Source: an uncultured Planctomycetia bacterium (GTDB lineage: Bacteria; Omnitrophota; Gorgyraeia; Pluralincolimonadales; Pluralincolimonadaceae). From it: a stretch of 64,000 nt of DNA. Positions 34,574 to 64,000 of the stretch are shown one piece after another. The position numbers and the translations under genes are program-made. Under the pieces are notes generated by a model. It was not told the DNA's origin, ran no database searches, and saw only the letters and a program-made list of their open reading frames with translations. The DNA is taken from positions 1,944-65,943 of the forward strand of contig CAZYUB010000012.1 of NCBI GenBank assembly GCA_964650515.1. The letters are read 5' to 3'. The stretch's first letter is position 1. Each line of letters begins with the position of its first letter.

Positions 34574-36106
34574 ATGCTTGCAAAAGTGGAGAGCAGGAGC
34601 GTACTCGGTATAGAGTCGAGGAAGGTCGACGTCGAGGTTGACATAGCGGGCGGGCTGCCTTCCTTTACCATAGTGGGACTTGCGGACACGGCCGTCAAGG
34701 AGAGCAGGGACAGGGTCATATCGGCGATAAAGAATTCCGGGTTCAAATTCCCTCCGAAGAGGATAACCATAAACCTCGCGCCGGCGGACCTAAGGAAAGA
34801 GGGTGCCAGCTATGACCTCGCCATCGCCCTCGGGATACTATCGGCTAACGGAGATCTCGGGCAGGGCTTGACCGAGGGCATGGTCTTTTGCGGTGAGCTT
34901 TCACTCGACGGCAGGGTAAGGCCGATAAACGGCGTGCTCCCGATCGCGATGGGGTTACCCGCCGGCGGCTGTAAGGGCCTTGTAATACCTGAAGGGAATT
35001 CCGGGGAGGCCGGCATTGTCGGAGGGCTTCCGGTATACCCGGTCGGCAGCCTCAAAGAAGCCGCGGGGTTCCTGAACGGGTCAGTAAAGGTCAGCCCGGT
35101 AAAGGCCTCCGGGCATTGCGGGGATATATCCGTTCAAAACCCCGATATCGACTTCAGCGATGTAAAGGGGCAATGGCACGTGAAGAGGGGGCTCGAGGTC
35201 GCCGCGGCGGGAGGGCACAATGTGCTTATGATCGGGCCGCCGGGTTCCGGGAAGACGATGCTCGCGCAGAGGCTTATAACGATATTGCCCGTCCTGTCGG
35301 CGGGTGAGATGCTCGAGACGACGAAGATACACAGCATATCCGGCTTGCTGAACGGCGGGAATTACCTTGTCTCGCTGAGGCCTTTCAGGATGCCGCACCA
35401 TACGGTGTCTTATGCAGGCCTCGTAGGGGGAGGGAACAGGCTCAAGCCCGGGGAGATAAGTTTGGCGCATAATGGCGTGCTGTTCCTCGATGAGCTTCCG
35501 GAATTCAGGAGGGACGCGCTTGAGGCGCTTCGCCAGCCCCTCGAAGGAGGTGAGGTCGTCATCTCGAGGGCCGAGCTAAGCCTCAAATATCCGGCGAAAT
35601 TCATGCTGGTAGCGGCGATGAACCCGTGCCCGTGCGGTTATTTTACGGACCCGAAGAAAGAATGCCATTGCACGCCGCCGGTCATACAGAGGTACCTGTC
35701 AAAAGTGTCGGGACCGCTTCTCGACAGGATAGACATACACCTCGAGGTGCCTTCGCTGAAATACAAGGAACTCTCGGGCAGGAGCCGCGGAGAAAGTTCC
35801 GAGGCCATAAGGGCAAGGGTCAATAAGGCAAGGGCGGCCCAGAAAAAGCGCTATGATGGCCTTTCGATATACTGCAACGCGCACCTGGGCTCAAAAGATA
35901 CCGAAAGGTTTTGTTGTATAGACAAGGAGGCCTCGGAGCTTCTTAAACTTGCCATCCTGGAGCTGGGTTTGAGCGCGAGGGGATACGATAAGGTCTTGAA
36001 GATAGCGAGGACGATAGCCGACCTTGCGGGTTCAGGGATGATATCAGCCGAGCACATATCGGAAGCGATAAACTACAGGAGCTTAGACAGGGATCTGGGG
36101 TTCTGA
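34574..36106 (+). CDS. comM: Mg-chelatase-like AAA+ ATPase YifB/ComM
   Basis: Lon-like N-terminus, Walker A GPPGSGKTM, and the C-terminal ChlI region. Confidence 0.9.
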   Translation: MLAKVESRSVLGIESRKVDVEVDIAGGLPSFTIVGLADTAVKESRDRVISAIKNSGFKFPPKRITINLAPADLRKEGASYDLAIALGILSANGDLGQGLTEGMVFCGELSLDGRVRPINGVLPIAMGLPAGGCKGLVIPEGNSGEAGIVGGLPVYPVGSLKEAAGFLNGSVKVSPVKASGHCGDISVQNPDIDFSDVKGQWHVKRGLEVAAAGGHNVLMIGPPGSGKTMLAQRLITILPVLSAGEMLETTKIHSISGLLNGGNYLVSLRPFRMPHHTVSYAGLVGGGNRLKPGEISLAHNGVLFLDELPEFRRDALEALRQPLEGGEVVISRAELSLKYPAKFMLVAAMNPCPCGYFTDPKKECHCTPPVIQRYLSKVSGPLLDRIDIHLEVPSLKYKELSGRSRGESSEAIRARVNKARAAQKKRYDGLSIYCNAHLGSKDTERFCCIDKEASELLKLAILELGLSARGYDKVLKIARTIADLAGSGMISAEHISEAINYRSLDRDLGF

Positions 36107-39100
36107 AGGGCGCGTGCTCCGCGACAGTCCGAGCACAGCCCTTTTTATCGCGAAGACCAGGCGTGACAGGGCCATCGCGGCCAGTATTCCCGCTAATATG
36201 ATCGATGTCAGGAAGAGGGAGTCCCTGTTATGGGAGCGCCTGAAAAGCATCAGCAGGGTCTCCGCCTCTTCGGCTTTTGATATGAGCACTTCCGGGGCAA
36301 GCCGAAGCTCCTCGAGGTCCTGTTTCGCCTTCACGGATATCTTCTCGAGGTCAGCGTAGTAACGCCTTCCGGACTTCAACCCGGCTATCTCGGCATCGAG
36401 GCGGGAAATATACCTCTTCAATGCGGCTATCCTTGCGTTATATTCGTCGTTGCCGGAATATATGGGCATGAACAATCCGATCCTCCTGACGGAGCCGTTG
36501 GCGGCCAGGTCCGCTACGATGTCCTTCAGGACAAAATTCCGCGGGTTTTTCAGCTTCTCCCTGTCGAACCATACCTGCATATTCTTGAGCAGTTTGCGGC
36601 TCATCCTTTCGGTCTCGTCGAGGTTCTCGTTGAACAGCCTCTTATACGCCATCTTTATGATATAGTTCGTCCACCACGACGACTGGGCCCTCTGGTAGTT
36701 GGTCTTCTGCCTCATGAGGAATTTCCCGTACCTGCCCGTCAGGTAGACGTTGACCGCCTCATTGAACTCGACCGCGGAATCCTTCTCGGGCTGCAGGCCG
36801 ATTATCTCTCGGTATGATGACGATACGTAATCCATATGCGATACGATATCCGCCATGACGGAAGGGGGGATGTTCTCGAAGGTCATCAACAGCGGCCACA
36901 GGAATTCAAGGGAGTCCGCGACCTTTTCGTCGTGCGACCTTATCTCGGCCATCCTTGAAGCTATAATGGCGTCGTTCTTGACTACGCGGCTGTTCGAGAG
37001 GAATTTGTGCAGGAAATCATCCGCGGACCGGGACCCTTTGAACGCTCGCGGGTTCCGGTAAATGCTCAACAGCCTGAAAGTGACGGAATCCATCTTTTCC
37101 TGCCATTTCTGCAGGTCATCGAAGGTCTTTGCGGCCATGAGGCCGCCGAGGTCATTGTCCTTTACTGACTTCAATATCCTGAAGAAGGCGCCAAGGTCTT
37201 TCTCGGGCAGGCCGAGGTCGTACGCCCTCTGCAGGTGGTACCATATGATGTTGACGATAATATCATTGTCGCTCACCTTCGGCACCGCGGCGAAACCGCT
37301 GTCCTTGAGGCCGTAGATATCCGTTATGACGCCGATGTCGTTAGCGTTCACGCCTTTTATCTTCCCGGACATCATCTCGAGCTCCTTCGGGAAATAGGCG
37401 CCGGCCGCGTATTTATAGATATCCTGTATCGGCTTCAGGTACCCGTGCCGCAGCTCATAGAACGTGAGCTTCTTCTTCATGGCGAAGACCGCCATCCATT
37501 CGGCGTTGCCCTGCTTCAGCAGCTCGAGGTCGGGATATTCCCGCGCCGCGGACCTTATAGAACGCCTCAGCTGCATCGCCCTTATGATATCCGGCTCCGT
37601 GACCGCGACCCCGAGGTTGCTAAGTATGCTTATGCCCGTCTGCAGCGTCGTATAATGCAGGACCCTGCCGTCGGTTATGCGTATGCCGGTCTTCTCCTCG
37701 ACCTCGTCCCTGATGCCGGATTCGATGCCTTCGGGTATCCTGGCAGGCCAGAACTCGTTTATCTGGGCGAGGAAAGCGGCCTTTTCAACGTCTCGGTGGT
37801 CCTTGAAGGCGAGGGAGTTAATCGCTATCTTTTCTGTTATGCCGGGCACGAAGAACGGGAGGTTCGGGTAATTCACGGGAAGCTCTTTCCAGAAATCCTT
37901 GAGCACCGACGCGAGCCTTTGCAGCTCCTCCGCGCCGAGCTCACGCCCGAAATCGAGCTTGAAATCCTCCCTGAGCCGGGCGAGGGTCATATAGGCGTTG
38001 AACCTCTTTATGGCCGGTGCCTCATTCTCGACGGTGTCCACGATGACCCTCAGCACGCGCCCGCCGTCTTTTTCGGTCCTCGGGTCGCGGCTCAGTTTTC
38101 GTTTGAGTATCTGTAGACGGAACGCGTTCTCGTATTCGAAGCCGGCGGGGAGGGGGAGGTCCTCGTTGAACCAGCCGTTTATCGCGGCGAATACCGGCGA
38201 GTAGTATTTGAAGTAGCCGCCGATCCCGTCCCAGCCCATGGACGCCCTGTTCTTTTCATATTCGAGCATCAGGTAGCCGCTTATGTTCCACCATGGTATC
38301 CTGCCGTATCCCGATGACATTCCAGCGCCGTAGAATTCCATGAATTCGGAAGCGAGGGCTTTCGGGCCGGCTTTTATGGAGTTCGCCTCAGCCTCGATAA
38401 CGAGTTTTGCGAGGAATTCGTAGGCGATGTCGAGCTTCATCTTTTCAGGGGTCTGGTCCGCGAGTATGCGGACCTGGCTTTCGGCATATCCCATATCGCG
38501 GTAAGTGGCCTCTACAACGCCCGATACGAACCCGGCCGGAAGCTCGAGTTTTTGTTTGTGCCAGGCCTCAGACATCCTGAATTCGTCATCGAAATAATCG
38601 AACAGCTCGGCTATGCCGCTGAAACCGGCCTTGTAATATATCAGCGTAAGGTAGCCGCTCTTTTCCCACCACGGCTTCTCGCTCATTCCCGAGGAGACGC
38701 CCGTCTCGTATATCTGCATGAACTTCGAGGCGAACTCGGCCGGGTCTACATCTATGCGGTTTGCCTTCGCCTCAAGCATGAGGGAGGAGAGCCAGATGTA
38801 GCCGGTCATCTCTTTTCCCGCTTCCGATTGTTTCTCGATGCGCTTTTCAATCCTCGAGATAATGCCCGCGTTCTCGCGGGGGGAGAGGCGGGGGTCCTCG
38901 AATATGCCCTTTTGCCTGAGCTCGTTGTTGAACATTATCTCGTTTATGATCTTCTCGTCCAGGATTACGCCCTGCTTCTTCAGCCCGTCGGCCTCCTCAA
39001 GCTGTGGGCCGAGGTAATCCATGTAATCGTCCATGTTCCAGCCGTATCTTTCGGCCATGACGTAATAGGACACCGCGAGGTATTCGCCGATGCCTTTGGC

Positions 39101-42100
39101 CCTGATGCCGTCCTTGAGGCCGGGATATTTGTCGCCGACCCTTTCCCATATCCCGACAAGGTAGCCCCTGAGCTTATCGGCGGTCTCTTTTATCACGTAG
39201 TTCGAGGGCTTGCCTTCGTTACCGAGTGTCTGCCATGTGTCGAGCGCCATGCGGTAATCCGACATGATGCATATGAGCTTGATGTCGCTCCTTTCGTATT
39301 CGACCTTCTTGACACCTTTCTTCCTGTAATCATAGAGGAACCTGTCCCTGTTTACCTTATACATCTCGTTCGGGACGGAGGTCTTATACCACGCGTAATT
39401 CACATAATCGAAACCGAGGTATTCCATTACCTCTTCCGTGGACATGTTGTTCTTCATGCCGGTCACTATAAGGTATTCGAGTTTTCCCTGCTTGCCCGCG
39501 ACAACGGTCTCGACGATGCCGAGGATCGTGCCGTATGGGATCTGGGTGGCCGGGATTATCTTCAGCACCGGGATGTAGAAGGTGACCGTGCCGAGCAGCT
39601 GGAAAGCGTTCTTAGCGGGTTCCGGCACGAGCTGGAACGGCTTCAGCGGGACGGACGGGTATTTTTTGCGGAACTGCGGCATCTTGTCGTATTCGGCGAA
39701 GAACTTCCTGAGGTTCTCCTCGTTCACGTCAAGCCCGGAATAATACAGCGAGAGGATGCCCCTTTGGAGGTATTCGTAGCGCTTCCAGATGCCCCGTTTC
39801 CTGGCGAAATCCGCGTTCCAGTATTTCTTCGTCTCTTCCCACTTGAAGACCTCCGCGATATCCTTCATCGACATCCCCGTCTCGCGGCTCGTCTCGAACC
39901 AGAACTGCCCGGTAAGCGGGTCAAGCACGTTGAACCACGGGTATTCCTTGCCGTAACGCGCTATCATCCCGAGCCCTTCGGCCCTGTCGAGCGCCATTAT
40001 AGCCATTCCCGCTATGTTGAACTTCAGGGAAAGCGCGATCTTGGCCCCCGCGAGCGCGGTTGAGGCGAGCAGGCGCCGTTTTCCCATCTTGTCCGACGCG
40101 TCGAAAAAATTCCTGAAAGCGGTAAGGTCCCCGAGCTCCGGCTCCTCGAGAGGGGATACGGCCTCACGCACGACAGGGGGAACCGCGTCCACGGCCGAGG
40201 GCTTCAATATCGGTATTGCCACCGAAAGCTTCTCCTGCACCGGAAGCACTTCGGCAAGCAGTTTCGTCTTTCCCTCGCGCGACTTCAACACCGGGGCCAG
40301 CCTGCTGTCTACGACCTTATCCGGTATGTAAAACTCTATCTTCTTGAGGTCGGCGCGCATCTTGTCTAGCAGGACCTCTTCCTGCGCGGAATAGCTGAAC
40401 TTATCTCTTGATTCCGGCAGGACGAGTTTTATCATGTCGTGCTTGTTCTGGCTCGGAAGCCCCCTAAGGGCGGAGAACATTATGACAAGCAGAAGGGAAG
40501 CGGAAACTATTATATAGGCCTTTTTCAGCTTTTCGCGGGGCGTGAGGCTGCGCGGGTCCAGGTCCCTGACCTTGCCGATGGCCGCGATGGCATAGCGGCC
40601 GAACATCAGCGAGCCCGCCCACGGCAGGATCCCGAATATCCCGAACACGGTCATCGGCGCTATCCCCGTAATGATATAAATGGCCGCTATGGACGATATT
40701 ATCAAGCCCATCTTTTGGGCTTCCTCGATCTTTATGTCCCTGAACTCGTTTTTAGTTATCCTGCCTTCGAGCTCCATCAAGGAGAGGGTGCTCGAGGTCT
40801 TCCATTCGGGGACTTTGTTGGCCTTCTCGGATTTATATATCGAGTATGAAAGCAGGGGTTTTATGACGGTCAACTGCAGGGACGATACGGTCGTCTCTAT
40901 CGTCTGCAGGACACTGTCGAAGAACTGGTCCACGAGCTCTATAGCGAAGGCCCCCGGGCGGATCGGGCGCCCTTCGGCTCGGGACCTGCGGAATATGTAC
41001 CTTACGGGGTCTATGAACCTGTGCACGAATATGATCCCGAAGAACGAGAGCGCCAATGTCAGGATATAAGCGTTTGAATTGGTCGGCACTATCAGGATAA
41101 AGGGAAATATCCAAAGCATGCACATCAGCATGATAAAGCAGAACAGCATCGGGTCGGAAAGCAGCCTTCCGATCGCCCAGCTCAGGTGCCACTGGTGGTA
41201 ATATGTCAGCAGTTTCCTGTAGGAGATCAGCGTCCTGATCGCCTGGAAATCTCCGATAAGCCACCTGACGTCGCGTATGATGTATGTGACGAAATGGAGC
41301 TGGTCGCGTTCGCCGACCGCGACGGAGTTATTATAGAAATTCGCCGTATATTTTACTATTTCGTCCATCCCCGTTTCTTTCAGGTGATGGAATTTCCTGG
41401 CGAAGCGGTACTCGCCGGTGTTGATATCGAAATGGTGCAGCCATACATCCCCGGCCGCGTCCTTCTCCAGTTTTATGAACCTTGTCGTATCGGCAAGGTC
41501 TATGCGCAGCACGACGGCGCCGAACTTCTCGAGGACCCTGCTTACGATATACCTCCTCGCGCCGAGCAACCCCTCGCAGTTCCTGCTGAATATCGATTCC
41601 TGCCAGTCGTGCGAAAGGACTTTAGCGGGTGAAAGCGTCTCCGGCTTGAAGACCCTTTCGTAGTATACCTTTGTCCTCGTGAAGCCCTTCCCGAAGAAAG
41701 CGCGCTCCTTGCCGTAGATGCCCGAGACGACCTTCATGTTTATCTCGTTCTCTATGTCGCGCTCGTTCTTCATTATCTTCCAGTAGACGCTCTCCTTGGC
41801 CGCGCCGCCGAGGTAGGGGGGAGTTATGACGATGTGCGGCTGCGCTATGACTATATGGCTGTTGTCGGGATGCATCATTATGGCGAGCGCCTTCTCGAGC
41901 TCGCCAGGATAGAGCTCGTTCTTATCGTCCATGATGACGCAGAACTCCGAGATCCTCTCCTGGTCGATCTCGACATCTTCGCCGCGCAGTATTCGTTCCG
42001 CGGCCTCGTCAGGGGTATATTGTTTTATGCCGAGGGCCTTCACGAGGTCCGTCGACCATATCCTGCAAAGCAGCGGTTTGTTCCTGTTTTGCGTGAACTC

Positions 42101-43609
42101 AAAACCCTCATCGGTGAACAGGTACGGCTTCGCCTGCCCGGTGTTCATGAAATGCATCAGGTTGCCTATGCCGCCGACCTTTCCGGCGAACCCGCCGGCT
42201 TTTATCATGCCGAGTTTCGTGTTGTCGAACCATTCGCTCTTCGACCTGTTCATGTAAAGGAAATCGAGGTTAGGGTAGGAATATTCCGACGAGAATTCCC
42301 GCAGACGCTTGACCTCGTATTCTATTATCTTGTCGTTCTTCGTGTCGGACCAGAACGTCATCACGAGCAGGATGCGGTTGCCGAACGTCTCGAGGGTAGG
42401 CCTCAGCGCGTCTATCGTCTTCCTGAAATAAAATATAGCTATCTCTGCGTCGGATTCGTTGTCGCTCCTCTTGGCCGTTATATAGGATATCTTCAGGGGT
42501 TTCTCTTCGGTGTAGTTCGCGTTTATGTATTCTCCGAGCTCGGGCAGCATCTTGTGGCCAGGCACGCTGACCATAAGGCTTACTATGAACAGGGATATCT
42601 TATGCGAGGGCTGCCAGGATATGTAATAGGTGATGCCGAAGCAGAGGGCTATCCAGATGAAAGTGATGGGAGGCATGTGCGGCAGGCCCGGGAAGCCGTA
42701 GACGGTAAGCGTCGGGACAACGGCGACGAGCGAAGCAAAGAAAAGCCTGAAGGAACGCGTGAGGCCTTCATAGAGGCGCGCCTCGGGCCCTTTGACGAAC
42801 GGGGGAGGGATCAGCGTGTCCTTGTTCTTGCGCAGCTGGTCCATCAGCAGGACCGCTTTGCGGTAACGGCCAAAATCCCTCAGGTTCTTTACGGCGTCCT
42901 TATATTCGGGATAGTTATCGAGCTCCCTCGTGAATTTTCCGAGCAGGCTCAGCTCGTGGTCCCCGAGCCGGTGGCCTATGATCCTGCGGTAGAGCAGCTC
43001 CGGGGGCACGACAAGTTTTTCGGCAAGCGCGGTAACGGCCTCCTTGATCTTTGCCCCGTCGTTTGCCCTGACCGCTTCCTTGAGATCGGAGAAGATCTGC
43101 GAGTAATCGGTAAAATCGCTTATGCTGCTGGCTTTCCTTATGTCTTCCTCGAAGACGGACATGAAATCGTGCAGCAGTTTCGACTGCATCTCAAGGCGTT
43201 TCTGCCTGAGCGTAGAGCCGAGGGCGGCCTTGCGTTTTTCGAGGGAAGAGATCTCGCGAAGCACGGCGGCGTCCGTATTCCTGTCATCGGACTGGTCGTT
43301 TTCCACGGACCTGTAGAGGCGCTCGAGCCTCTTATCTATAGAGCGCGTCTCCCGCCCGTAGCTTCTGGCGAGCCATTTCGTATCGCGGTATATGATCCCG
43401 GCGAGGGCCTTCTTGACGATTATCTCGGACATCACGAAATTATGCTGTCCGGGGGTCGCGTACCTGAACCTGCCCCTCCTGAGGTGCCCGAACCTTTCGA
43501 GCAGGCGGGTAATGGAAAAAGGCCAGAGGTACCCGGGGCGCGGCAGCTCCTGCAGGAAATCCGTCAGCTGCTTCGATATCCTGGAGAGTTCGCTCCGGTC
43601 GTTCGGCAT
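36083..43609 (-). CDS. Giant (2508 aa) multi-pass membrane protein with an OpgH/MdoH-like GT2 glucosyltransferase domain and a ~1400-aa C-terminal soluble region with internal repeats
   Basis: Uninterrupted 7.5-kb ORF. TM clusters at aa ~290-350, 820-865, 965-1047 and 2462-2482. The GT2-like core at aa ~380-800 has a VIMDDKNE putative DxD and an OpgH-like block VLSHDWQESIF (cf. E. coli OpgH ILSHDFVEA; recalled, not aligned). The ATG abuts the ybaK-like TAA. Confidence 0.8.
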   Translation of the reverse strand: MPNDRSELSRISKQLTDFLQELPRPGYLWPFSITRLLERFGHLRRGRFRYATPGQHNFVMSEIIVKKALAGIIYRDTKWLARSYGRETRSIDKRLERLYRSVENDQSDDRNTDAAVLREISSLEKRKAALGSTLRQKRLEMQSKLLHDFMSVFEEDIRKASSISDFTDYSQIFSDLKEAVRANDGAKIKEAVTALAEKLVVPPELLYRRIIGHRLGDHELSLLGKFTRELDNYPEYKDAVKNLRDFGRYRKAVLLMDQLRKNKDTLIPPPFVKGPEARLYEGLTRSFRLFFASLVAVVPTLTVYGFPGLPHMPPITFIWIALCFGITYYISWQPSHKISLFIVSLMVSVPGHKMLPELGEYINANYTEEKPLKISYITAKRSDNESDAEIAIFYFRKTIDALRPTLETFGNRILLVMTFWSDTKNDKIIEYEVKRLREFSSEYSYPNLDFLYMNRSKSEWFDNTKLGMIKAGGFAGKVGGIGNLMHFMNTGQAKPYLFTDEGFEFTQNRNKPLLCRIWSTDLVKALGIKQYTPDEAAERILRGEDVEIDQERISEFCVIMDDKNELYPGELEKALAIMMHPDNSHIVIAQPHIVITPPYLGGAAKESVYWKIMKNERDIENEINMKVVSGIYGKERAFFGKGFTRTKVYYERVFKPETLSPAKVLSHDWQESIFSRNCEGLLGARRYIVSRVLEKFGAVVLRIDLADTTRFIKLEKDAAGDVWLHHFDINTGEYRFARKFHHLKETGMDEIVKYTANFYNNSVAVGERDQLHFVTYIIRDVRWLIGDFQAIRTLISYRKLLTYYHQWHLSWAIGRLLSDPMLFCFIMLMCMLWIFPFILIVPTNSNAYILTLALSFFGIIFVHRFIDPVRYIFRRSRAEGRPIRPGAFAIELVDQFFDSVLQTIETTVSSLQLTVIKPLLSYSIYKSEKANKVPEWKTSSTLSLMELEGRITKNEFRDIKIEEAQKMGLIISSIAAIYIITGIAPMTVFGIFGILPWAGSLMFGRYAIAAIGKVRDLDPRSLTPREKLKKAYIIVSASLLLVIMFSALRGLPSQNKHDMIKLVLPESRDKFSYSAQEEVLLDKMRADLKKIEFYIPDKVVDSRLAPVLKSREGKTKLLAEVLPVQEKLSVAIPILKPSAVDAVPPVVREAVSPLEEPELGDLTAFRNFFDASDKMGKRRLLASTALAGAKIALSLKFNIAGMAIMALDRAEGLGMIARYGKEYPWFNVLDPLTGQFWFETSRETGMSMKDIAEVFKWEETKKYWNADFARKRGIWKRYEYLQRGILSLYYSGLDVNEENLRKFFAEYDKMPQFRKKYPSVPLKPFQLVPEPAKNAFQLLGTVTFYIPVLKIIPATQIPYGTILGIVETVVAGKQGKLEYLIVTGMKNNMSTEEVMEYLGFDYVNYAWYKTSVPNEMYKVNRDRFLYDYRKKGVKKVEYERSDIKLICIMSDYRMALDTWQTLGNEGKPSNYVIKETADKLRGYLVGIWERVGDKYPGLKDGIRAKGIGEYLAVSYYVMAERYGWNMDDYMDYLGPQLEEADGLKKQGVILDEKIINEIMFNNELRQKGIFEDPRLSPRENAGIISRIEKRIEKQSEAGKEMTGYIWLSSLMLEAKANRIDVDPAEFASKFMQIYETGVSSGMSEKPWWEKSGYLTLIYYKAGFSGIAELFDYFDDEFRMSEAWHKQKLELPAGFVSGVVEATYRDMGYAESQVRILADQTPEKMKLDIAYEFLAKLVIEAEANSIKAGPKALASEFMEFYGAGMSSGYGRIPWWNISGYLMLEYEKNRASMGWDGIGGYFKYYSPVFAAINGWFNEDLPLPAGFEYENAFRLQILKRKLSRDPRTEKDGGRVLRVIVDTVENEAPAIKRFNAYMTLARLREDFKLDFGRELGAEELQRLASVLKDFWKELPVNYPNLPFFVPGITEKIAINSLAFKDHRDVEKAAFLAQINEFWPARIPEGIESGIRDEVEEKTGIRITDGRVLHYTTLQTGISILSNLGVAVTEPDIIRAMQLRRSIRSAAREYPDLELLKQGNAEWMAVFAMKKKLTFYELRHGYLKPIQDIYKYAAGAYFPKELEMMSGKIKGVNANDIGVITDIYGLKDSGFAAVPKVSDNDIIVNIIWYHLQRAYDLGLPEKDLGAFFRILKSVKDNDLGGLMAAKTFDDLQKWQEKMDSVTFRLLSIYRNPRAFKGSRSADDFLHKFLSNSRVVKNDAIIASRMAEIRSHDEKVADSLEFLWPLLMTFENIPPSVMADIVSHMDYVSSSYREIIGLQPEKDSAVEFNEAVNVYLTGRYGKFLMRQKTNYQRAQSSWWTNYIIKMAYKRLFNENLDETERMSRKLLKNMQVWFDREKLKNPRNFVLKDIVADLAANGSVRRIGLFMPIYSGNDEYNARIAALKRYISRLDAEIAGLKSGRRYYADLEKISVKAKQDLEELRLAPEVLISKAEEAETLLMLFRRSHNRDSLFLTSIILAGILAAMALSRLVFAIKRAVLGLSRSTRPSEPQIPV

Positions 43610-46760: not shown

Positions 46761-47111
46761 GGGGGCGAAAGGCTTCGACTTAAGAAGCGAGTTAAGGGTT
46801 GCATGCCGAGGGTGTCAGGTGGCCTCGTTAAAACCTGGCAAAAAAAGTTAAACGCGAACGAACTCGCGCTAGCCGCTTAATTGCGGCACGTCACCCGGTT
46901 TTGCCTGCGAAGCCGGATGTGACGCCGCAGCAGGCTGGTTCCGTTCCTTTCGCCTTTGGGGGGCGGGACGAGATAAATTAAAGGCTAGTCGTTGCGGTAG
47001 CGGGCCTGCTTACGCGCCCGCATCGGCGAAACGACAAATTGCAGGAAACGCATGTAGGAGCTCTTAGCAAGTGACTTAAGGACCGGGGTTCGAATCCCCG
47101 CGCCTCCACCA
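46761..47111 (+). ncRNA. ssrA: tmRNA (SsrA), 351 nt
   Basis: 5' GGGGGCGAAAGGCTTCGAC, and a 3' tRNA-like end GGTTCGAATCCCCGCGCCTCCACCA pairing with the 5' end. Internal tag reading frame GCG AAC GAA CTC GCG CTA GCC GCT TAA (ANELALAA) at 46854-46880. Confidence 0.85.
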
Positions 47112-56516: not shown

Positions 56517-56594
56517 CGGGGCGTAGCGCAGTTTGGCTAGCGCGTCTGCTTTGGGAGCAGAAGGTCCTCGGTTCAAGTCCGAGCGCCCCGACCA
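56517..56594 (+). tRNA. tRNA-Pro (anticodon TGG)
   Basis: Acceptor CGGGGCG/CGCCCCG, anticodon loop TTTGGGA, T-loop TTCAAGT, ACCA 3' end. Confidence 0.85.
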
Positions 56595-56625
56595 TAAATT
56601 CCCGCTATCGGTGTTTATGAATTAT

Positions 56626-56702
56626 GCGCCTGTAGCTCAGTTGGATAGAGCAGCTGCCTTCTAAGCAGCGGGCCGGGCGTTCGAGTCGCCCCAGGCGCGC
56701 CA
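56626..56702 (+). tRNA. tRNA-Arg (anticodon TCT)
   Basis: Acceptor GCGCCTG/CAGGCGC, anticodon loop CTTCTAA, T-loop TTCGAGT, GCCA 3' end. Confidence 0.85.
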
Positions 56703-56821
56703 TAAATTCCCCTATACAGGGGTAGCGAATTTAGTCCGAGCTCAGCTGAGCGGAATATCGTAGAGATTCCGCCAGCGTATTGAGCGAGGAAAAAGTAGTT
56801 GTTATAGGTATAGATTTCAAC

Positions 56822-56899
56822 GGTGGGTGTAGCTCAGCTGGTTAGAGCACGGGACTGTGGCTCCCGTTGTCGCGGGTTCGATCCCCGTCACCCACCCCA
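56822..56899 (+). tRNA. tRNA-His (anticodon GTG) with G-1
   Basis: Extra 5' G pairing with discriminator C; acceptor GTGGGTG/CACCCAC; anticodon loop CTGTGGC. Confidence 0.85.
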
Positions 56900-56924: not shown

Positions 56925-56960
56925 GGAGAATTCAAAGCCTATGATCGGTATCTCTGGTCA
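56925..56960 (+). terminator. Rho-independent terminator after the tRNA cluster
   Basis: AAGCCTATGA-N13-TCATAGGCTT followed by TTT. Confidence 0.7.
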
Positions 56961-57186
56961 TAGGCTTTTTATCTGTCGCTGTGTCAAAGACTTAGAGTAT
57001 TGCAGTAATTGGCACAGTTATGCGTCATTCTCATCGGATATCTGTAAAGAATCCCTCCCTGTTTTGCGCCAATAAATCGCCAAAATCGGCCGATTCCTCT
57101 CTTAGTTTATAGTCGATAGTTTATGGCCTGATTCAGCCATTATTTTGTTATAATATGGCTATAAACTAAGAAGAGAGGAATAACGC

Positions 57187-58353
57187 ATGAAGGTTGGTCG
57201 CAACGATCCGTGCCCCTGTGGAAGCGGGAAAAAATATAAGAAATGCTGTCTAATCAAGGATACAATGATTGTGAGCGATTTAAAGAATATCAGATTAGAA
57301 GAAGTAAAGGATCCAAAGGAAATCGAACGGATTAAAAAGGAGATTGAGATAAAACAAGGCCCAGAACCGCATATAAATTTAGTGCCCAGCATTATTTGGA
57401 AAGGCTACAGATGGCGCTCTATTTATAGTACATTACATGCGCGGAATTTACATGAAACATTTGATGAATTTATTCTTGTCAGGCTAAAAAGTCACTTTGG
57501 ACCAGAATGGAAGGCCGAGCAAGACAAGCTGCCACCGGAGAAGCAGCATATATTATTGAAATGGCTCCGGGCCTTAAATAAATTATCTGTTTCAAAAAAC
57601 GTCGTAAAGCATGGAGAGCATTTGTGGTCAGTTGAAGCCACAGGACCTGTAAGGGCGCTTAATCAGTTTGCCTACGATGTTTATTGCCTTGAATCGCAAA
57701 AGAAGCTCCCTGAATTTTTAATTAAAAAAATAAAGAATTATAACGAATTTCAAGGTGCTAGATATGAAATTGCAACAGCCGCAATAATGCTAAGGGCTGG
57801 TTATGAAATCGAATTTTTAGACGATAAACATTTGCAGGAAAAACATTGCGAATTTATAGCCAAGCACCGCATTAGCGGTATTTCATATGGCGTAGAAGCT
57901 AAAAGTCGCCGACGTAAAGGGGTAATGCATGAAGAGGGCGAATTCGATCCCTCTAGAGATGTGAAGGGAGATGTCCAGAATTTATTAAAAAAGGCAATTG
58001 CGCAGCGCCCCAAAGGAATGCCATTTATAATTTTCATTGATCTGAATCTCCCGCCTGAACCAAATGTTAAAATTGAGAATAGAAGATGGTTTGCCGACGT
58101 TAAGAATATTTTAGATGAGAGAGGCAAGTCCTCAGATATTAATCCCGACCCATTTAATGCGTTAATACTGACGAATTTTTCATATTATTATCAAGGAGAT
58201 GATGAAGTTGCCAGCGGTGGAGAATATCTTCAGATAATAGGTTTTTATCCAGAGAATAAAGTGTATAAAAATTATCCTGTGCAAGATATTCAGCCCCTCG
58301 AAGATATTAGAGGTTGTCTAGATAGATATAGCTATATACCTAAAGAAGTCTGA
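57187..58353 (+). CDS. SEC-C motif (zinc-binding) domain protein with a C-terminal region showing a PD-(D/E)XK-like signature (putative nuclease)
   Basis: 388 aa, AT-rich gene (visibly lower GC than the flanks). N-terminal GRNDPCPCGSGKKYKKCC. Candidate D...(E)xK: FLDD ... GVEAKSRR. GAGAGGAA ribosome-binding site. Confidence 0.65.
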   Translation: MKVGRNDPCPCGSGKKYKKCCLIKDTMIVSDLKNIRLEEVKDPKEIERIKKEIEIKQGPEPHINLVPSIIWKGYRWRSIYSTLHARNLHETFDEFILVRLKSHFGPEWKAEQDKLPPEKQHILLKWLRALNKLSVSKNVVKHGEHLWSVEATGPVRALNQFAYDVYCLESQKKLPEFLIKKIKNYNEFQGARYEIATAAIMLRAGYEIEFLDDKHLQEKHCEFIAKHRISGISYGVEAKSRRRKGVMHEEGEFDPSRDVKGDVQNLLKKAIAQRPKGMPFIIFIDLNLPPEPNVKIENRRWFADVKNILDERGKSSDINPDPFNALILTNFSYYYQGDDEVASGGEYLQIIGFYPENKVYKNYPVQDIQPLEDIRGCLDRYSYIPKEV

Positions 58354-58767
58354 TCATTGTTGGGAGGGGAGCCTTAGGTCGATTTCAACTCTTGCCACAT
58401 TATGAGCATTTTTGCTAGCCTGCCCCCCCATTAGTTGTACCACTTCTTAAGAGAGTCTAGCAGATACCCTCAAGAGCAAAGAAACGCCTCTTAAATCCCG
58501 CACTAGCCGTAAACAAAGAGGCTATCCCCTTGCGCCTTATTACTGGCGGTCGTGACGAGAGTCACCTCTCAAATCTATCAAGTTCAAAATAATACTTCTT
58601 TTCTAATAAAATATATCTTGACAAAACTAAATGCCAGCGCTAATCTATGAAAAGTAGTCGAAACGTTTCGAGCTTATCCAGTCGAAGTAACTAAACAATG
58701 GCTAACCTCTGGAAGTCCAAAGATGGCGTCGACTCATTCAAGCCTTAAAGAAAAAATCACAATCTAA

Positions 58768-58794
58768 AACGGCAATGATCATTGCCGTTTTTTG
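58768..58794. terminator. Perfectly palindromic hairpin AACGGCAATGATCATTGCCGTT flanked by A-run/T-run (bidirectional terminator-like)
   Basis: 11-bp perfect stem, then TTTTTT on the plus strand and TTTT on the minus strand. Confidence 0.65.
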
Positions 58795-60471
58795 TTCTTA
58801 TTACAGTTCACAAAAGTCAAATCAAGGTTCTTCCACTTGAAAAAAGATCCCCTGCTTTATCAAGTCGTAGCCTTCTTTTGGATATGCGCCATACTATATT
58901 TTAACCCCCGCATATTCGCGTTGCTCGTAGGCCCTGAAAATATTGCCGCAAAATTGACAATAGTATTTTTTGCGATCCTTCTTAATCTGTTCTGGTTTTA
59001 CGCATTTTATCATCTGGTAATAATAGTATTCTCCTACCTAAGAAATTCCAACCTGTATCGCGCGTCAAACATAGCTAACGCAACAGATAGTTCTCGCGTC
59101 GCTCTTTTATATGCGACATGCAACGACTTTAAGGAAGATGCGGTCTTATCTTGCCTCAGCCAGGATTATCCAAATGTCCATACGTTCATTCTGGATGACG
59201 GCGATGATGAAGCTTTCAAAATGAGAATAGATGAGTTTTGCCGTCACCATAAAGGCGAAGTAACTGTAATGCGCCGTGCTGGCAGGCAAGGCTTCAAGGC
59301 CGGCAACCTTAATAATTGCCTTAATGAAATAGACGGTTTCAAATACATCAGCGTTTCCGACGCGGACACCATATTGCCCGGGGATTACGTATCAAAGCTT
59401 CTGCCATATTTCTGTGACCCGAGGACAGCATTCGTCCAATCGAGGCAGGAGTTTAATCCGGCCCAGAGCTCTTCTTTTGCGCAGGGCCTCGGCTACCAGA
59501 TAGAGCTTCATTGCGACCATTATCTGAAGACGAAGAATCAATACGGATTTGTCATGTTCTACGGGCATGGCGCTTTGATGCGGACGGACGTATTAAAGGA
59601 AATAGGCGGTTTCCCCGAAGTGGCGACGGAGGACCTGGCATATTCAATGGAAATAAGGCGAAAGGGATATCACGGCGTTTACGCGCAGGATGTTACGTGC
59701 CTCGAGGAATTCCCGCCGACATTCCGGCAGTATCGCAAACGAAACGATAAATGGATAAAGGGTACGGCGGAGTGCCTGTTAAAGTATTTCCCGTCTTTTC
59801 TTAAGTGCAGTGGTATCAGCCGTGTCGAGAAGTTTGATGTATTCGTGTCCGCGCTAAGCCTTCTTCTAAGCCTTCCCTTTGTACTGCTTCTGCTATTGGT
59901 GGGTATCATGCTTCCATATTATTACTCGCATTTCCAGTTCCAGGGGCCGATGTTCAAGATGCCGCTTTCTTATAATGGGACTTTCCTTGGCGCCTTGACG
60001 GGGATCTCGAGCAACCTCTTTTGGAGATGGGACTTTTTCCTGATGTTGCTGTTGACGCTCGCCGCGCCCGTTTTACCCGCTATATTGCAGGCAATCCGCG
60101 ACCCGGTCAAAAAGATCCGCTTCATAATAATGTATACATTCATATTTTACGCTACGCAGGTAAGCTCGGCGTGGGCGCTCGTCGCGTACCTGATAAGCAA
60201 GAAGGCCGAATTTCCGGTTACGGGGGATGCTTCCGAATGGCGCGGAGTTAACAAGCCTGTTTTTATCGTCGAATGCGCGGGCGCTGCGCTATTTTTGTCG
60301 ATAAGTCTTATTTCGAGGAATATATGGTTCTTGTCATTCGCCGCGGGTATTGCAGCAGGAGTATTGATTCTAAAACGCGGCTTCGAAAATAAATTGGCAA
60401 GGATATCCGCAGTTATTCCCATAATAATCCTGGCGGTAATAGTGGTTTTTATCGGCAGGAAGCTCCAATAA
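58792..60471 (+). CDS. Family-2 glycosyltransferase, membrane-integrated (2 N-terminal + C-terminal TM; cellulose-synthase/OpgH-like processive type)
   Basis: DDGDD and DADT Asp motifs and a QYRKRNDKW (QxxRW-like) block. No in-frame ATG near the 5' end; start is TTG 58792 (inside the hairpin) or TTG 58846. Confidence 0.75.
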   Translation: MFLLQFTKVKSRFFHLKKDPLLYQVVAFFWICAILYFNPRIFALLVGPENIAAKLTIVFFAILLNLFWFYAFYHLVIIVFSYLRNSNLYRASNIANATDSSRVALLYATCNDFKEDAVLSCLSQDYPNVHTFILDDGDDEAFKMRIDEFCRHHKGEVTVMRRAGRQGFKAGNLNNCLNEIDGFKYISVSDADTILPGDYVSKLLPYFCDPRTAFVQSRQEFNPAQSSSFAQGLGYQIELHCDHYLKTKNQYGFVMFYGHGALMRTDVLKEIGGFPEVATEDLAYSMEIRRKGYHGVYAQDVTCLEEFPPTFRQYRKRNDKWIKGTAECLLKYFPSFLKCSGISRVEKFDVFVSALSLLLSLPFVLLLLLVGIMLPYYYSHFQFQGPMFKMPLSYNGTFLGALTGISSNLFWRWDFFLMLLLTLAAPVLPAILQAIRDPVKKIRFIIMYTFIFYATQVSSAWALVAYLISKKAEFPVTGDASEWRGVNKPVFIVECAGAALFLSISLISRNIWFLSFAAGIAAGVLILKRGFENKLARISAVIPIIILAVIVVFIGRKLQ

Positions 60472-60487: not shown

Positions 60488-63400
60488 GTGAAAAGGAAGA
60501 TACTGATAGTCGCCGCGATGTTAATGATGACGACCGCGTTCCTGGCGGGTTTCGAATTGACCGATGAAGTTATTGCTTTCCGCGCTCTCGAGGAAGGCAA
60601 CTATCAGGGCGCGCTCGAGATATATATCAAGAATAATAATAATTCCGGGGCAGGTATGGCGTACCTCGGTTTGAAACGTTTCGATGACGCTAAGGAAAAA
60701 TTTGAAAAGGCGGGCGATCTGTCCGGCATCGGCCTTGCCTATTGCGGAAAACACCTTTATGACGAAGCTATAAGGAACTTCGAACAGAAGAGGGATAACT
60801 CCGGCATCGGCCTTGCCTATTGCGGCAAGAGGGATTTTAACGCCGCAAGGGGGTATTTTAGGCAGGCGAACGACTATTCCGGCATGGGTCTGGCGGCTCT
60901 CGGAGAAAATAAAACGGATGAAGCGAGGGAATGGTTTACCAAAGTAGGGGATAAGGGCGGCCTCGGGCTTGTTCTTTTGGCCGAGAAGAAATATGATGAA
61001 GCCCTGAAGAGCTTTACCGCCATAAAAGACAACTCCGGCGCAGGACACGCATATTGCGGAAAGAAAGATTACAGCTCGGCCTTGACATATTTTAAGAAAG
61101 CCAACGACCTTTCCGGCCTTAGCCTCGCCTATTCAGGCAAGAATATGTATACCGAGGCGATAAGATACGCTGTCGAGGCGAACGATTATTCCGCGCTCGG
61201 ACATGCCTATCTGGGCAAGCACGACTATAAGGAAGCGCTGGATAGCTTCACGAAGGCCAATGACCTTTCCGGTATCGGTTTTGTCTATTGCAAACAAAAG
61301 GACTTCGCCAAGGCAGCCCAATACGCGAAAGCCGCAAACGACCTTTCTTTGCAGGGGCAGATATATCTTGGGGCAGGCGACTATAAATCAGCGGAAGACT
61401 GTTTTACGGCAGCTAACGACCTTTCCGGCCTCGGTTTGGTCAACTTAAAGAGCAAAAAATACGATAAAGCGAAGGAATATTTCCAAAAGGCCAACGACAT
61501 GTCCGGCCTCGGTTTTCTTTACGGCGAGATAGGCGATTACTCCAAATCGGAAGAGTGCTTTACCAAAGCCAACGACATGGCCGGTCTCGGTAGGATGGCG
61601 CTTAAAAGAAAGCAGTTCAACGAAGCGATCGCGTATTTCAAGAAGTCCAACGACCTCGATGGCCTCGGCGACCTTTATTGGCAGTTGAGGAGTTTCGATA
61701 AGTCGATAGAGTGTTTCAAGGCGGTAGGCGATGACATCAAGGTCGTCCAGGCCTTGCGCGAGAAGAAGAGAAGGGATCCCATAACAAACAAGGTCAGCTA
61801 TTACGGATCCGAGGATGCCATCGCATACGCGAAAGCCAAGATAGAAGAAGGAAAATTCGTCGCGCCTTTGCATATCGAGATCGGGCACATATACAGCTCG
61901 CGTAACGACTTTGAGAACGCCTTGAAGGAGTACGAAGCCGCCTTGAACAGCGATACTTACTATGCGGCCGACGCGCTTTTTTGGATAGGCAAAACCCGCT
62001 ATCAACAGAAAAACTATCAGCTCGCGAAAGAAGTTTTCAGCAACCTCGTCGCGAAATACCCCTATCATCGCCTATCGTATGAGGCGCGCGGCGCTGTAAA
62101 ATATTTGGAAAGGTCTGGTAAAGCATCGGCTGGTTTACCAGCGAATAATATATGCGGACCTTATGCCTTAAAACTGCTTCTCTGTAACTACGGGATAGAA
62201 GCCGCGACAGATGAGATCGCGAAAGCCGCCGGGACGGATAAAGAAGGCACTACCATGCTCGGTCTCATCCAAGCCGCGAAGCTGAGCGGTTTGGAGATAT
62301 CGGCATTCAAAACGGATTCCGGCAAACTCAGGGGGTACGCCGGCAAGGCTGTCCTGTTCATCAATAATTCCCACTACGTGTTTTTGAAAGAGGTTAGAGC
62401 GGCGGGAGTGCTGGTTACCGATAACATAGCTGACTCGTACATGACTTTCAGCGCCCTGGACATGTGCTGGCAGGGACAGATCATCGCCATAAAGACAGAC
62501 CCAGGCATAAAGGAGTTCGCTTACGACGAGCTGGCGAGCATTAAAGGAGGAAACCGCAGGGCTTCGGAGGGCGGTACCACTAAGAACGATCCTGGCTTAT
62601 ATCCGAACGGGTCATTAACACTTGATTACGGTAAAATAGGCCCGATCGTACCGGGCGATTATTTGATGATGAATAATCTTTCGGATTCGGGAACCGGGCA
62701 CAATCCCCAGCCTGATGGCGGGATGGGGATGACGCGTATGGGTACCGGCGAGAACGCGCTCGGAGGACAGCAATGTGATGCCGTATTTGACCCAATAGCA
62801 ATAACGGGCGGCCAGGTTATCATACCAAAGGAAGACATATTTATCCCTTGCAGGGGCCGGAAACACGGCATAAACCTGAGCCTTAAAAGGACCTATTCAT
62901 CAAGCAGCGAAGTGGACGGGAAGATAGGTTTTGGCTGGGCGCTTGCGCACGATGTTAAACTGCGGGTTATACCGGCGGAAGGCGACGACCCGCAGCATGT
63001 TATCGTGACGACTCCCGACGGGACTATATTCAGCTATGAGTATGACGGAGAAGGCTTTTACTATATGCCTGAATGCGACGGCTCATACGTCAAAAAAAAT
63101 GAGGATGGATCATATTATTGGATGCGCCAGACCGTAATGTATGGATTACAAAAGTATTATTTTGAAGTATATGTAACGGAGACCACAACTCATCGTATCA
63201 AAAAAATAGAAGATCTTAACAGTAATTACCTTATTTATATATATGCGGGGGCTAATCTCACTAAGATATATGATAACTACAGCAGGTTTTTAAGTTTTAC
63301 GTATCTCGACGGAAGGATAGATACCGTAACCGGCGGGAAAAGCACAGTCACGGTGACATATAGCTACGATTACGACGAGAACGGCAACCTTACCCTGGTT

Positions 63401-64000
63401 AACGGTCCTGAAAATTATTCGGAAAGATACGAATACGAAGACGCAAATAATATACACAATGTCACTGCATATGTTGACGCCGAATACAACAGGACGGAAT
63501 ACACCTATGAGCAGGACCCATCAGGCTTAAGTGATGTCTGCGTTGAAGTAAGGGACGCGCTAGATAATCCCGCTACTTACGACTACTTGTTCGAGATAGG
63601 TGTCACGACGGTTGTGGATGCGCGCGGACGTACCAGCGTTTATGAATACGAAAAGGGCAAAATTAACAAAATCACCAACTCGAACGGCGGCATAACATAC
63701 TATTCGTTTGACGACACTTATATGCGCAATTCGATAACCGATGAGCATAACAGAGGATGCGGGTGGTTGAATAAATATCATTATGGCTTGGTGGAAACAT
63801 TGGACAACGAAGAAGGCTATAGCGCATATTTCGGTTATAATTCATTCGCTTACATAGAATGGATATCCGACGTTAAGAACAGGGCCTGGACATACGAATA
63901 CGATGATAACGGTAATTTAAGATACAGACGCGCGCCCGCTCCTAACAACCAGGGAACGTCGACGGTTGAAAAGCAGTACGGTTTAGGCGGTTGTCTTACG
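60488..64000 (+). CDS. Large secreted protein, 3' partial (>1171 aa): signal peptide, ~14 tandem 26-aa repeats, TPR-like region, C39-like papain-fold Cys peptidase domain, YD/RHS repeats
   Basis: I translated the frame codon by codon from GTG 60488 (GGGAGG ribosome-binding site 7 nt upstream) to 64000 with no stop. It is absent from the track because there is no stop in the window. Signal peptide MKRKILIVAAMLMMTTAFLAG. Peptidase motifs CGPYAL (Cys556) and NSHYVFL (His629). YD repeats such as VTYSYDYDENGNLTLV and WTYEYDDNGNLRYRR. Confidence 0.8.
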   Translation, partial: MKRKILIVAAMLMMTTAFLAGFELTDEVIAFRALEEGNYQGALEIYIKNNNNSGAGMAYLGLKRFDDAKEKFEKAGDLSGIGLAYCGKHLYDEAIRNFEQKRDNSGIGLAYCGKRDFNAARGYFRQANDYSGMGLAALGENKTDEAREWFTKVGDKGGLGLVLLAEKKYDEALKSFTAIKDNSGAGHAYCGKKDYSSALTYFKKANDLSGLSLAYSGKNMYTEAIRYAVEANDYSALGHAYLGKHDYKEALDSFTKANDLSGIGFVYCKQKDFAKAAQYAKAANDLSLQGQIYLGAGDYKSAEDCFTAANDLSGLGLVNLKSKKYDKAKEYFQKANDMSGLGFLYGEIGDYSKSEECFTKANDMAGLGRMALKRKQFNEAIAYFKKSNDLDGLGDLYWQLRSFDKSIECFKAVGDDIKVVQALREKKRRDPITNKVSYYGSEDAIAYAKAKIEEGKFVAPLHIEIGHIYSSRNDFENALKEYEAALNSDTYYAADALFWIGKTRYQQKNYQLAKEVFSNLVAKYPYHRLSYEARGAVKYLERSGKASAGLPANNICGPYALKLLLCNYGIEAATDEIAKAAGTDKEGTTMLGLIQAAKLSGLEISAFKTDSGKLRGYAGKAVLFINNSHYVFLKEVRAAGVLVTDNIADSYMTFSALDMCWQGQIIAIKTDPGIKEFAYDELASIKGGNRRASEGGTTKNDPGLYPNGSLTLDYGKIGPIVPGDYLMMNNLSDSGTGHNPQPDGGMGMTRMGTGENALGGQQCDAVFDPIAITGGQVIIPKEDIFIPCRGRKHGINLSLKRTYSSSSEVDGKIGFGWALAHDVKLRVIPAEGDDPQHVIVTTPDGTIFSYEYDGEGFYYMPECDGSYVKKNEDGSYYWMRQTVMYGLQKYYFEVYVTETTTHRIKKIEDLNSNYLIYIYAGANLTKIYDNYSRFLSFTYLDGRIDTVTGGKSTVTVTYSYDYDENGNLTLVNGPENYSERYEYEDANNIHNVTAYVDAEYNRTEYTYEQDPSGLSDVCVEVRDALDNPATYDYLFEIGVTTVVDARGRTSVYEYEKGKINKITNSNGGITYYSFDDTYMRNSITDEHNRGCGWLNKYHYGLVETLDNEEGYSAYFGYNSFAYIEWISDVKNRAWTYEYDDNGNLRYRRAPAPNNQGTSTVEKQYGLGGCLT
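60590..61730 (+). repeat. Tandem in-frame 78-bp (26-aa) repeat array, ~14 units, consensus ANDLSGLGLAYxGKxDYxEAxxxFxK
   Basis: Regular 26-residue periodicity in the translated protein. DNA-level near-identical copies, e.g. TCCGGCATCGGCCTTGCCTATTGCGG at 60722 and 60800, 78 nt apart. Confidence 0.75.

Follow-up and report, generated by a model that had tools for sequence, protein, structure and literature searches.

Defence islands are known to contain nuclease effectors that are encoded by single, stand-alone genes. Here we analyzed a candidate of this kind in a 64,000-nt stretch of contig CAZYUB010000012.1 from an uncultured Omnitrophota bacterium (the whole stretch, contig positions 1,944 to 65,943, is termed the window in the following): the gene at 57187–58353 on the forward strand, whose product carries a SEC-C zinc knuckle at its N-terminus and a predicted PD-(D/E)XK nuclease core towards its C-terminus. 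Among the described systems, compared by description, Rugutis appears closest to this SEC-C family in architecture. Rugutis is a single gene of the Lactococcus lactis plasmid pUCCL633_059 that codes for 359 amino acids (aa) with a SEC-C motif in the first ∼20 residues, and its homologs outside Lactococcus number in the thousands, among them one from a ‘Clostridiales bacterium’ (Grafakou et al. 2024, PMC11381338; PMC13064643). Its anti-phage activity and its link to TerL are experimental (PMC11381338; Mosterd et al. 2025, PMC12184496). The window gene resembles Rugutis in several respects: it is a single gene, its protein is of similar length (388 aa) with SEC-C at the extreme N-terminus, the AlphaFold2 model is confident yet finds no significant match in the PDB, there are many homologs in Bacillota and beyond, and it occurs on mobile DNA. 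In contrast, Rugutis is not reported to have a nuclease fold, and our searches found no lactococcal relative of the window family.

A solitary gene in which an N-terminal domain is followed by a C-terminal PD-(D/E)XK domain is the usual layout of type IV, Mrr and MspJI restriction enzymes, and in E. coli mrr itself lies beside a type I restriction–modification (R-M) system, within the immigration control region. The window gene shares this layout and stands alone without a methylase, its relatives are found beside type I R-M operons, with one homolog directly adjoining an Mrr_cat gene, and MspJI is among the fold matches of the core. However, no significant match to Mrr_cat or to another type IV model was obtained, the N-terminal domain is none of the known readers of modified bases and a SEC-C knuckle is foreign to type IV enzymes. 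The resolvases Hjc and RecU are among the best-supported structural matches of the core (Foldseek probability 0.77–0.90 for Hjc from two archaea), and the catalytic residues of Hjc, E...D...ExK, are analogous. The window protein differs from them in having three times their size, with additional elements at both termini, and in not being a conserved housekeeping protein; the E-values are not significant either. With SecA, YecA and YchJ it has the zinc knuckle C-x-C-x8-C-[CH] in common, which is also N-terminal in the DNA-binding YchJ (PMC13377102), but the likeness ends after about 20 residues and the rest of the protein is unrelated. Through a knuckle of this kind, which binds zinc or iron, SecA docks on SecB and on ribosomes (bioRxiv 10.1101/613315). 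A SEC-C motif in a defence context is also found in the PADLOC candidate PDC-S12 and in the E2/E1-E2 (Cap2-like) proteins of cyclic-oligonucleotide-based antiphage signalling systems (CBASS); in these the motif is C-terminal and no similarity exists elsewhere in the protein. A preliminary description of the locus had assigned the gene to no named system. This stands in so far as no PADLOC model matches beyond the motif, but Rugutis, which is named and validated, has the same architecture by description (PMC11381338).

The open reading frame (ORF) is present as a single gene exactly as first described and, judged from its relatives, is clearly a real gene because it has more than 1,300 full-length homologs and 1,417 core-domain clusters. 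The latter number was obtained in an exhaustive search with a core-only profile at E ≤1e-3 (1,060 clusters at ≤1e-10, 442 at ≤1e-30), the clusters being representatives at 50% identity. The protein is composed of the following parts, with conservation figures referring to an alignment of 241 family sequences:

57187–58353, forward strand: coding sequence of 388 aa with ATG start, comprising the SEC-C zinc knuckle, a conserved N-terminal domain and the PD-(D/E)XK-like core
57199–57249, forward strand: SEC-C motif, aa 5–21, C-x-C-x8-C-C (Cys9, Cys11, Cys20, Cys21)
57250–57363, forward strand: low-confidence, poorly conserved linker, aa 22–59, of variable length in the alignment
57364–57741, forward strand: conserved N-terminal alpha/beta domain, aa 60–185, with an ETF[H/D]EF motif, H121, G153 and D164
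57742–58350, forward strand: PD-(D/E)XK-like core plus C-terminal elements, aa 186–388 (DSSP on AlphaFold2 models, Foldseek)
57766–57768, forward strand: codon of E194 on helix alpha1, predicted active-site acid, conserved in 241/241
57850–57852, forward strand: codon of E222, where beta2 starts, predicted to correspond to the ‘D’ of PD (236 E and 5 D of 241)
57895–57903, forward strand: codons of E237-A238-K239 on beta3, (D/E)xK motif, E237 and K239 each 241/241
58039–58047, forward strand: codons of D285-L286-N287 at the end of beta4, conserved (D285 and N287 each 239/241)

The N-terminal motif CPCGSGKKYKKCC (aa 9–21), which had been read as a SEC-C knuckle from the start, belongs to this motif family by its match to Pfam PF02810 (E 3.5e-10; 40 bits versus a cut-off of 20.4, aa 5–21), and in the PDB it aligns with the zinc-knuckle peptides of SecA and YchJ. 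About 78% of the 241 members carry the motif and roughly a fifth are without it; one relative from WOR-3, which starts 53 nt 3′ of hsdS, truly lacks the knuckle. In the AlphaFold2 model the predicted local distance difference test score (pLDDT) falls below 50 for aa 22–38, a disordered linker, and reaches about 87–97 in the N-terminal domain. Conservation in this domain is high, with D164 at 100%, G153 at 98%, T91, F92 and F95 at 95–97% and H121 at 95%, and it yielded no Pfam or PDB sequence match.

The SEC-C gene product likely has a PD-(D/E)XK nuclease fold, a rating that we give because the predicted topology, an invariant and well-placed motif and an enrichment of fold matches come together. 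The full-length AlphaFold2 model, calculated from a 41-sequence alignment, has a pLDDT of 87.5 and a predicted template modelling score (pTM) of 0.84; the core-only model has a pLDDT of 83. For both models DSSP assigns helices to residues 188–203 and 263–271 and strands to residues 206–210, 223–227, 233–240 and 280–285. The resulting order of elements, alpha1-beta1-beta2-beta3-alpha2-beta4, is the canonical one of the PD-(D/E)XK superfamily, and structure prediction, which the preliminary description had named as a check on its nuclease assignment, spoke in its favour. The residues by which the superfamily is recognised are all found and conserved: an acid at the start of beta2, (D/E)xK on beta3 and the Glu on alpha1 that often accompanies them. 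The assignment had originally been based on two strings, EIEFLDD (aa 207–213) and GVEAKSRR (aa 235–242), both of which are present with 24 residues from D213 to E237. Its E-x-K motif was borne out by E237 and K239 on beta3, which are invariant and followed by S240 in 240/241 sequences. The ‘DD’ taken as the conserved acid has to be given up: D212 is conserved at 82% and D213 at 41%, and the actual partner is E222 with 98% E and 2% D. When the core was compared to the PDB with Foldseek, 42 of the top 50 chains were PD-(D/E)XK nucleases. Besides Hjc, the matches comprised the DREN domain of SPARDA (probability 0.93), BstEII, SfsA, HerA-DUF4297, PspGI, HindIII, DdmD, RecU and LmuA as well as FokI, MspJI, the R2 endonuclease, MunI, AF1548, HincII and XisH; the list for the full-length model resembles that of the core and includes tRNA splicing endonuclease. 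With Pfam, PDDEXK_11 gave non-significant matches (E ≥0.02) in 4 of 41 full-length members and Mrr_cat an E of 0.16 in one of 27 core sequences. We infer nuclease activity for the SEC-C protein, with DNA as the substrate.

Family members are ∼320–400 aa long (365–380 aa in Bacillota) and uniform in architecture, and no informative fused domain was found in unusually long members. They were found in Patescibacteria, Acidobacteriota, Omnitrophota, WOR-3, Planctomycetota, Desulfobacterota, Actinomycetes and Bacillota, with an unusually common occurrence in Patescibacteria (candidate phyla radiation, CPR). The distribution is patchy and identity across phyla amounts to 35–55%. Some members are plasmid-borne, in rhizobia (Rhizobiaceae) and in Burkholderiaceae (Caballeronia). 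Among 2.9 million viral contigs of IMG/VR four relatives were detected, and the deposited phage genomes contain no family member. In the databases the proteins are labelled ‘SEC-C domain-containing’, ‘YecA family’, ‘YchJ’ or ‘hypothetical’. Searches against Pfam, NCBIfam, PADLOC and PHROGs yielded nothing significant beyond the ∼20-residue SEC-C motif: all matches in PADLOC-DB v2 were confined to aa 2–44, and in PHROGs the sole match at E ≤0.001 was the motif, with phrog_37612 (aa 229–255, E 0.2) not being significant. An affiliation with the YecA/YchJ family was considered and rejected, as NCBIfam scores were 10–34 bits over aa 1–22 only versus cut-offs of 120–158 bits. ‘SEC-C’ proteins of Enterococcus and Clostridium plasmids were also tried as relatives; they are unrelated and carry the knuckle at the C-terminus, only the motif being shared.

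The neighbourhoods of homologs had been proposed as a further check, with consistent housekeeping contexts counting against a defence gene. They proved not to be of the housekeeping kind but to vary from locus to locus, with many genes of R-M systems, defence and mobile elements. At least six loci, from several phyla and one plasmid, have a relative within a type I R-M operon or next to it. The following orders were found, with the family member given as [gene]: hsdR-radC-DUF4062/HATPase-x-hsdS-[gene]-hsdM-Fic in WOR-3; hsdM-hsdS-hsdR-ygjP-[gene]-Mrr_cat-AAA/nSTAND3-peptidase S8 for an Omnitrophota relative; hsdS-hsdM-ORF6N-Fic-hsdS-AAA_21-[gene]-Schlafen/AlbA_2-x-hsdR-ygjP in Planctomycetota; and integrase-[gene]-hsdS-hsdM-hsdR on a 20-kb Caballeronia plasmid. 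A homolog with 57% identity is situated near ORF6N and a type II system of Vsr, EcoO109I and a C5-methylase. N6_N4 methylases, resolvases, SNase, HEPN_AbiU2, HicAB, TIR/AbiTii and NACHT genes occur in further loci, and one relative's locus is a prophage end with integrase, terminase and ClpP. As a separate observation, a YgjP-like (PF01863) metallopeptidase gene stands directly 3′ of hsdR in family-bearing type I operons (L094 7110–7808, L095 13756–14502, L066).

The counts of neighbouring genes are as follows. In a conservative local phmmer search, 10 of 88 loci had type I R-M subunits no more than about 6 kb away, at least two subunits in 6 of them, and 13 of 88 had a Ser/Tyr recombinase nearby; about 1% of random genes would be expected to lie so near a type I system, which is a rough estimate and not a measured background. 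An N6_N4-type methylase is located within three genes at six loci, divergently adjacent in two, and phmmer with one query at E ≤1e-8 recovered it at 3 of 88. The 150 immediate neighbours match 89 different Pfam families: resolvase/recombinase is found four times, AAA_21 (AbiEii-like ATPases) together with PARIS AriA-like proteins three times, and Methylase_S, N6_N4_Mtase, KAP NTPase and Schlafen twice each, alongside MADS components and single matches to GmrSD_N, ApeA and HEPN_LA2681. We also considered a multi-gene system with a conserved partner and rejected it: when up to three genes on each side were clustered for 85 loci, the largest cluster was a small helix-turn-helix protein occupying 10 positions, 3 of them immediately upstream. 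Because no neighbour family is conserved, the SEC-C gene is a self-contained unit.

We consider it probable that the SEC-C protein is a defence nuclease of some kind, directed against phages or plasmids. The contexts of the relatives support the initial proposal of an anti-phage defence candidate, and from them we infer the defence role itself. A stand-alone defence endonuclease acting directly on foreign DNA in the manner of type IV restriction is a realistic possibility, though we would stop short of calling it probable. In such an enzyme E194, E222, E237 and K239 of the C-terminal core would coordinate a divalent metal and cleave the phosphodiester bonds in DNA, with D285 and N287 lying near the predicted site. 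The N-terminal domain (aa 60–185) may recognise a feature of the invading DNA or gate the nuclease, which would then cut this DNA directly, following a restriction-like logic as in type IV, Mrr and MspJI enzymes; neither a methyltransferase nor a partner gene would be needed. The SEC-C knuckle on its flexible tether would most likely represent an accessory module that binds nucleic acid or a protein partner. Three features make us slightly favour direct restriction over abortive infection of the Rugutis type: the arrangement of N-domain and PD-(D/E)XK core, the single-gene organisation and a location next to type I R-M systems that resembles that of Mrr.

Several results weigh against a directly restricting nuclease. 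Regarding the fold, no single Foldseek match is significant (best E 0.035, TM-scores 0.2–0.4), hhalign of the core with an Mrr_cat protein gave a probability of 0.4 and the family profile retrieved only SEC-C matches from the PDB sequences. Regarding recognition, the N-terminal domain matched none of the modified-base readers and DNA-binding families in Pfam, and at codon 93 (57463–57465) the window protein has Asp where 228/241 relatives have His. Regarding context, the window gene is flanked by tRNAs and a glycosyltransferase family 2 (GT2) gene and not by defence genes, about 75% of the loci are without a recognisable defence or R-M marker in the conservative local search, and some immediate neighbours of relatives are plainly housekeeping genes (Hsp70, MreB, LexA).

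An abortive-infection nuclease of the Rugutis type would degrade DNA indiscriminately and thereby kill or arrest the infected cell, with the SEC-C knuckle and/or the N-domain serving as sensor or latch. The common features, namely a single gene, an N-terminal SEC-C, a high pLDDT, no significant PDB match and Bacillota members, are consistent with this, as are the Abi-type AAA_21/AbiEii, HEPN_AbiU2 and TIR/AbiTii genes among the family's neighbours. Rugutis escape mutants map to the ATPase domain of TerL, and TerL is toxic in Rugutis-positive cells (PMC12184496). However, mutated TerL is still toxic in the same study (PMC12184496), so that the trigger model is unsettled. The likeness is moreover one of published description and not of sequence: no Lactococcus or Pontibacillus entry was among the best 120 homologs listed for each of three queries, Bacillaceae and Oscillospiraceae seeds included, and tblastn of PLSDB with three family queries (one without SEC-C, E ≤10) gave no Lactococcus plasmid match. 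We regard abortive infection of this type as rather unlikely for the window protein. That Rugutis itself belongs to the SEC-C nuclease family is a tentative suggestion drawn from the comparison by description. If it does, the E...E...ExK site might be its effector, a DNase licensed by the packaging machinery of the phage, through the TerL ATPase or the DNA ends that TerL generates, with the SEC-C zinc (or iron) knuckle as sensor or latch; this more detailed proposal is speculative and the more doubtful of the two.

The next alternative is tied to the history of the window copy, which is a recently, horizontally acquired mobile cassette. The features around the gene are:

56517–56899, forward strand: cluster of tRNA-Pro(tgg), tRNA-Arg(tct) and tRNA-His(gtg), with tRNA-His at 56823–56899
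56934–56968, forward strand: terminator-like hairpin with a 15-bp stem and T-run, directly 3′ of tRNA-His
57071–58419, forward strand: cassette of ∼1.35 kb with 92% nt identity to the unrelated metagenome contig L096
57100–57171, forward strand: 13-bp inverted repeat TCTTAGTTTATAG / CTATAAACTAAGA around the −10 element, ending 1 nt 5′ of the ribosome-binding site
57146–57154, forward strand: putative extended −10 element TGtTATAAT (TG at 57146–47, TATAAT at 57149–54), read from the sequence
57172–57179, forward strand: ribosome-binding site AGAGAGGA, likewise read from the sequence and rated good
58766–58791, forward strand: terminator-like hairpin with an 11-bp stem and T-run, 412 nt past the stop codon

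Beyond the cassette end (window 58419), contig L096 carries a convergent large serine recombinase gene. The GC content of the gene is 0.384 compared to 0.555 in window 1–56000 and 0.543 in the whole window, which agrees with the strong AT-richness noted before. Judged from its housekeeping proteins, the window belongs to Candidatus Omnitrophota. Sister Omnitrophota strains have the amidase ... RNase PH-Ham1-AsmA block in common with the window at about 87–90% nt identity; synteny ends at the 3′ end of tRNA-His and the SEC-C gene is absent from the sister strains. Their layout is tRNA-Pro, a 137-aa PDDEXK_5 gene, tRNA-His, a 390-nt spacer and a GT2 gene, whose product is 38% identical to the window GT2 although the upstream core genes are ∼88% identical at the nt level. 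The sister spacer between tRNA-His and GT2 shares nothing with the window flanks and so does not mark the precise ends of the insertion. An island bounded by a repeated tRNA 3′ end was rejected, since the window contains neither such a direct repeat nor an integrase.

The PDDEXK_5 gene (PF11645) of the sisters (L097 13940–14353, also L100, L101 and L102) lies between tRNA-Pro and tRNA-His, at about window 56661, where the window has tRNA-Arg(tct); its product and the core of the SEC-C family are not related (hhalign probability 0.3). The small nuclease gene carried at the tRNA cluster thus differs from strain to strain. To the right of the cassette the window also consists of variable or conflict-type DNA. 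The GT2 gene (58792–60471, forward strand) codes for a membrane protein and is as low in GC as the cassette over its first ∼450 nt. It is followed by an ORF of more than 1,171 aa (60488–64000, forward strand, continuing past the window end) with the architecture TPR-Peptidase_C39-DUF6531-RHS and TPR repeats of ∼26 aa (78 nt), a polymorphic-toxin-like protein in a strain-variable region. The conserved part of the window contains a transfer-messenger RNA gene (46761–47111, forward strand, tag ANELALAA) and a 2,508-aa ORF (36083–43609, reverse strand), which is also found in one sister strain.

The region of the inverted repeat (57100–57171) has an RNA fold of −24.6 kcal/mol (z −3.4), and within it a direct repeat TAGTTTATRG also brackets the −10 element. 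A consensus promoter scan left the −10 element unreported, as no −35 matches. Between the window and the L096 cassette, two sequences only, the inverted repeat shows one compensatory and one disruptive change, and it possibly represents an operator or a hairpin near the ribosome-binding site. Of the two strong flanking terminators proposed earlier, the upstream one is found behind tRNA-His, whereas the nearest downstream hairpin does not directly follow the gene. The upstream hairpin is most simply the terminator of the tRNA cluster because it comes directly after tRNA-His. The 440-nt gap 3′ of the gene has no ORF ≥40 aa and no Rfam match, and tRNAs were the only RNA elements in the gene's flanks. 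As an exact match the 388-aa sequence is absent from a collection of 15 billion proteins in which RNase PH and Ham1 of apparently the same 67,270-nt contig are present; the SEC-C gene may be called differently, or be uncalled, in the deposited record.

The gene could in principle serve a selfish mobile-element function without host defence, as cargo of a recombinase element, as a homing or exclusion nuclease or as an addiction module. The serine recombinase gene adjoining the cassette in L096, the lead of resolvase/recombinase among the Pfam families of immediate neighbours (4/150), the recombinases at 13/88 loci, the plasmid copies in Rhizobiaceae and Caballeronia and the low-GC, tRNA-adjacent window copy would all fit such a role. 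In contrast, neither the window nor most loci hold a recombinase, an antitoxin or a conserved partner, viral contigs contain very few family members and deposited phage genomes none, and a position within type I R-M operons is one that defence cargo typically takes. The proposal also overlaps with a directly restricting defence nuclease, as defence genes usually ride on mobile elements, and we judge a purely selfish role to be improbable.

A further alternative is a ribosome- or SecB-tethered RNase or other translation-linked effector, in which the knuckle would dock the protein on ribosomes or SecB in the way of SecA and the PD-(D/E)XK-like core would cut RNA. The binding of SecB and ribosomes by SecA-type metal-binding domains (bioRxiv 10.1101/613315) and the presence of RNA cutters in the PD-(D/E)XK fold, such as the tRNA splicing endonuclease among the Foldseek matches, point in this direction. 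However, about a fifth of the members have no knuckle, which is hence not essential to the function of the core, an N-terminal SEC-C is also present in a DNA-binding regulator, YchJ (PMC13377102), and the best fold matches are DNA enzymes; an RNase is very unlikely. We think it just as unlikely that the protein is a type II restriction endonuclease of the classical kind with its methyltransferase gene at another locus. HindIII, BstEII, PspGI, MunI and HincII are among the fold matches and six loci have the N6_N4-type methylase within three genes mentioned above, but more than 85% of the loci, including the window, are without an adjacent methylase, and a cross-phylum identity as high as 35–55% with one invariant N-domain would be out of the ordinary among type II enzymes, whose sequences diverge with specificity. 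Least probable is a housekeeping role as a DNA repair or recombination nuclease (an Hjc/RecU-like resolvase) or as a YecA/YchJ family protein: Hjc and RecU are among the best fold matches and some homologs bear the names ‘YecA family’ or ‘YchJ’, but sister strains that belong to the same species-level group lack the gene, its GC content lies 17 points under the core genome, its patchy distribution spans unrelated contexts, its NCBIfam YecA/YchJ-type matches are limited to the ∼20-residue motif far under the cut-offs, and the protein has three times the size of Hjc.

The immune repertoire of Patescibacteria/CPR, in which the SEC-C family is unusually common, is poorly known. With about 1,000–1,400 clusters, this family is modelled nowhere in Pfam, NCBIfam, PADLOC or PHROGs beyond the 20-residue motif, and its members are mislabelled in the databases. 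The predicted active site with its four invariant residues provides point mutants that can be tested. The repeated insertion into type I R-M operons of several phyla gives another example of these operons as landing pads for defence cargo. If the knuckle does act as sensor or latch, a motif familiar from the docking of SecA to the ribosome and SecB would have been put to a new use. Should Rugutis turn out to be a member, the family would offer the first mechanistic hypothesis for a validated system whose fold, by its published description, has no counterpart in the PDB.

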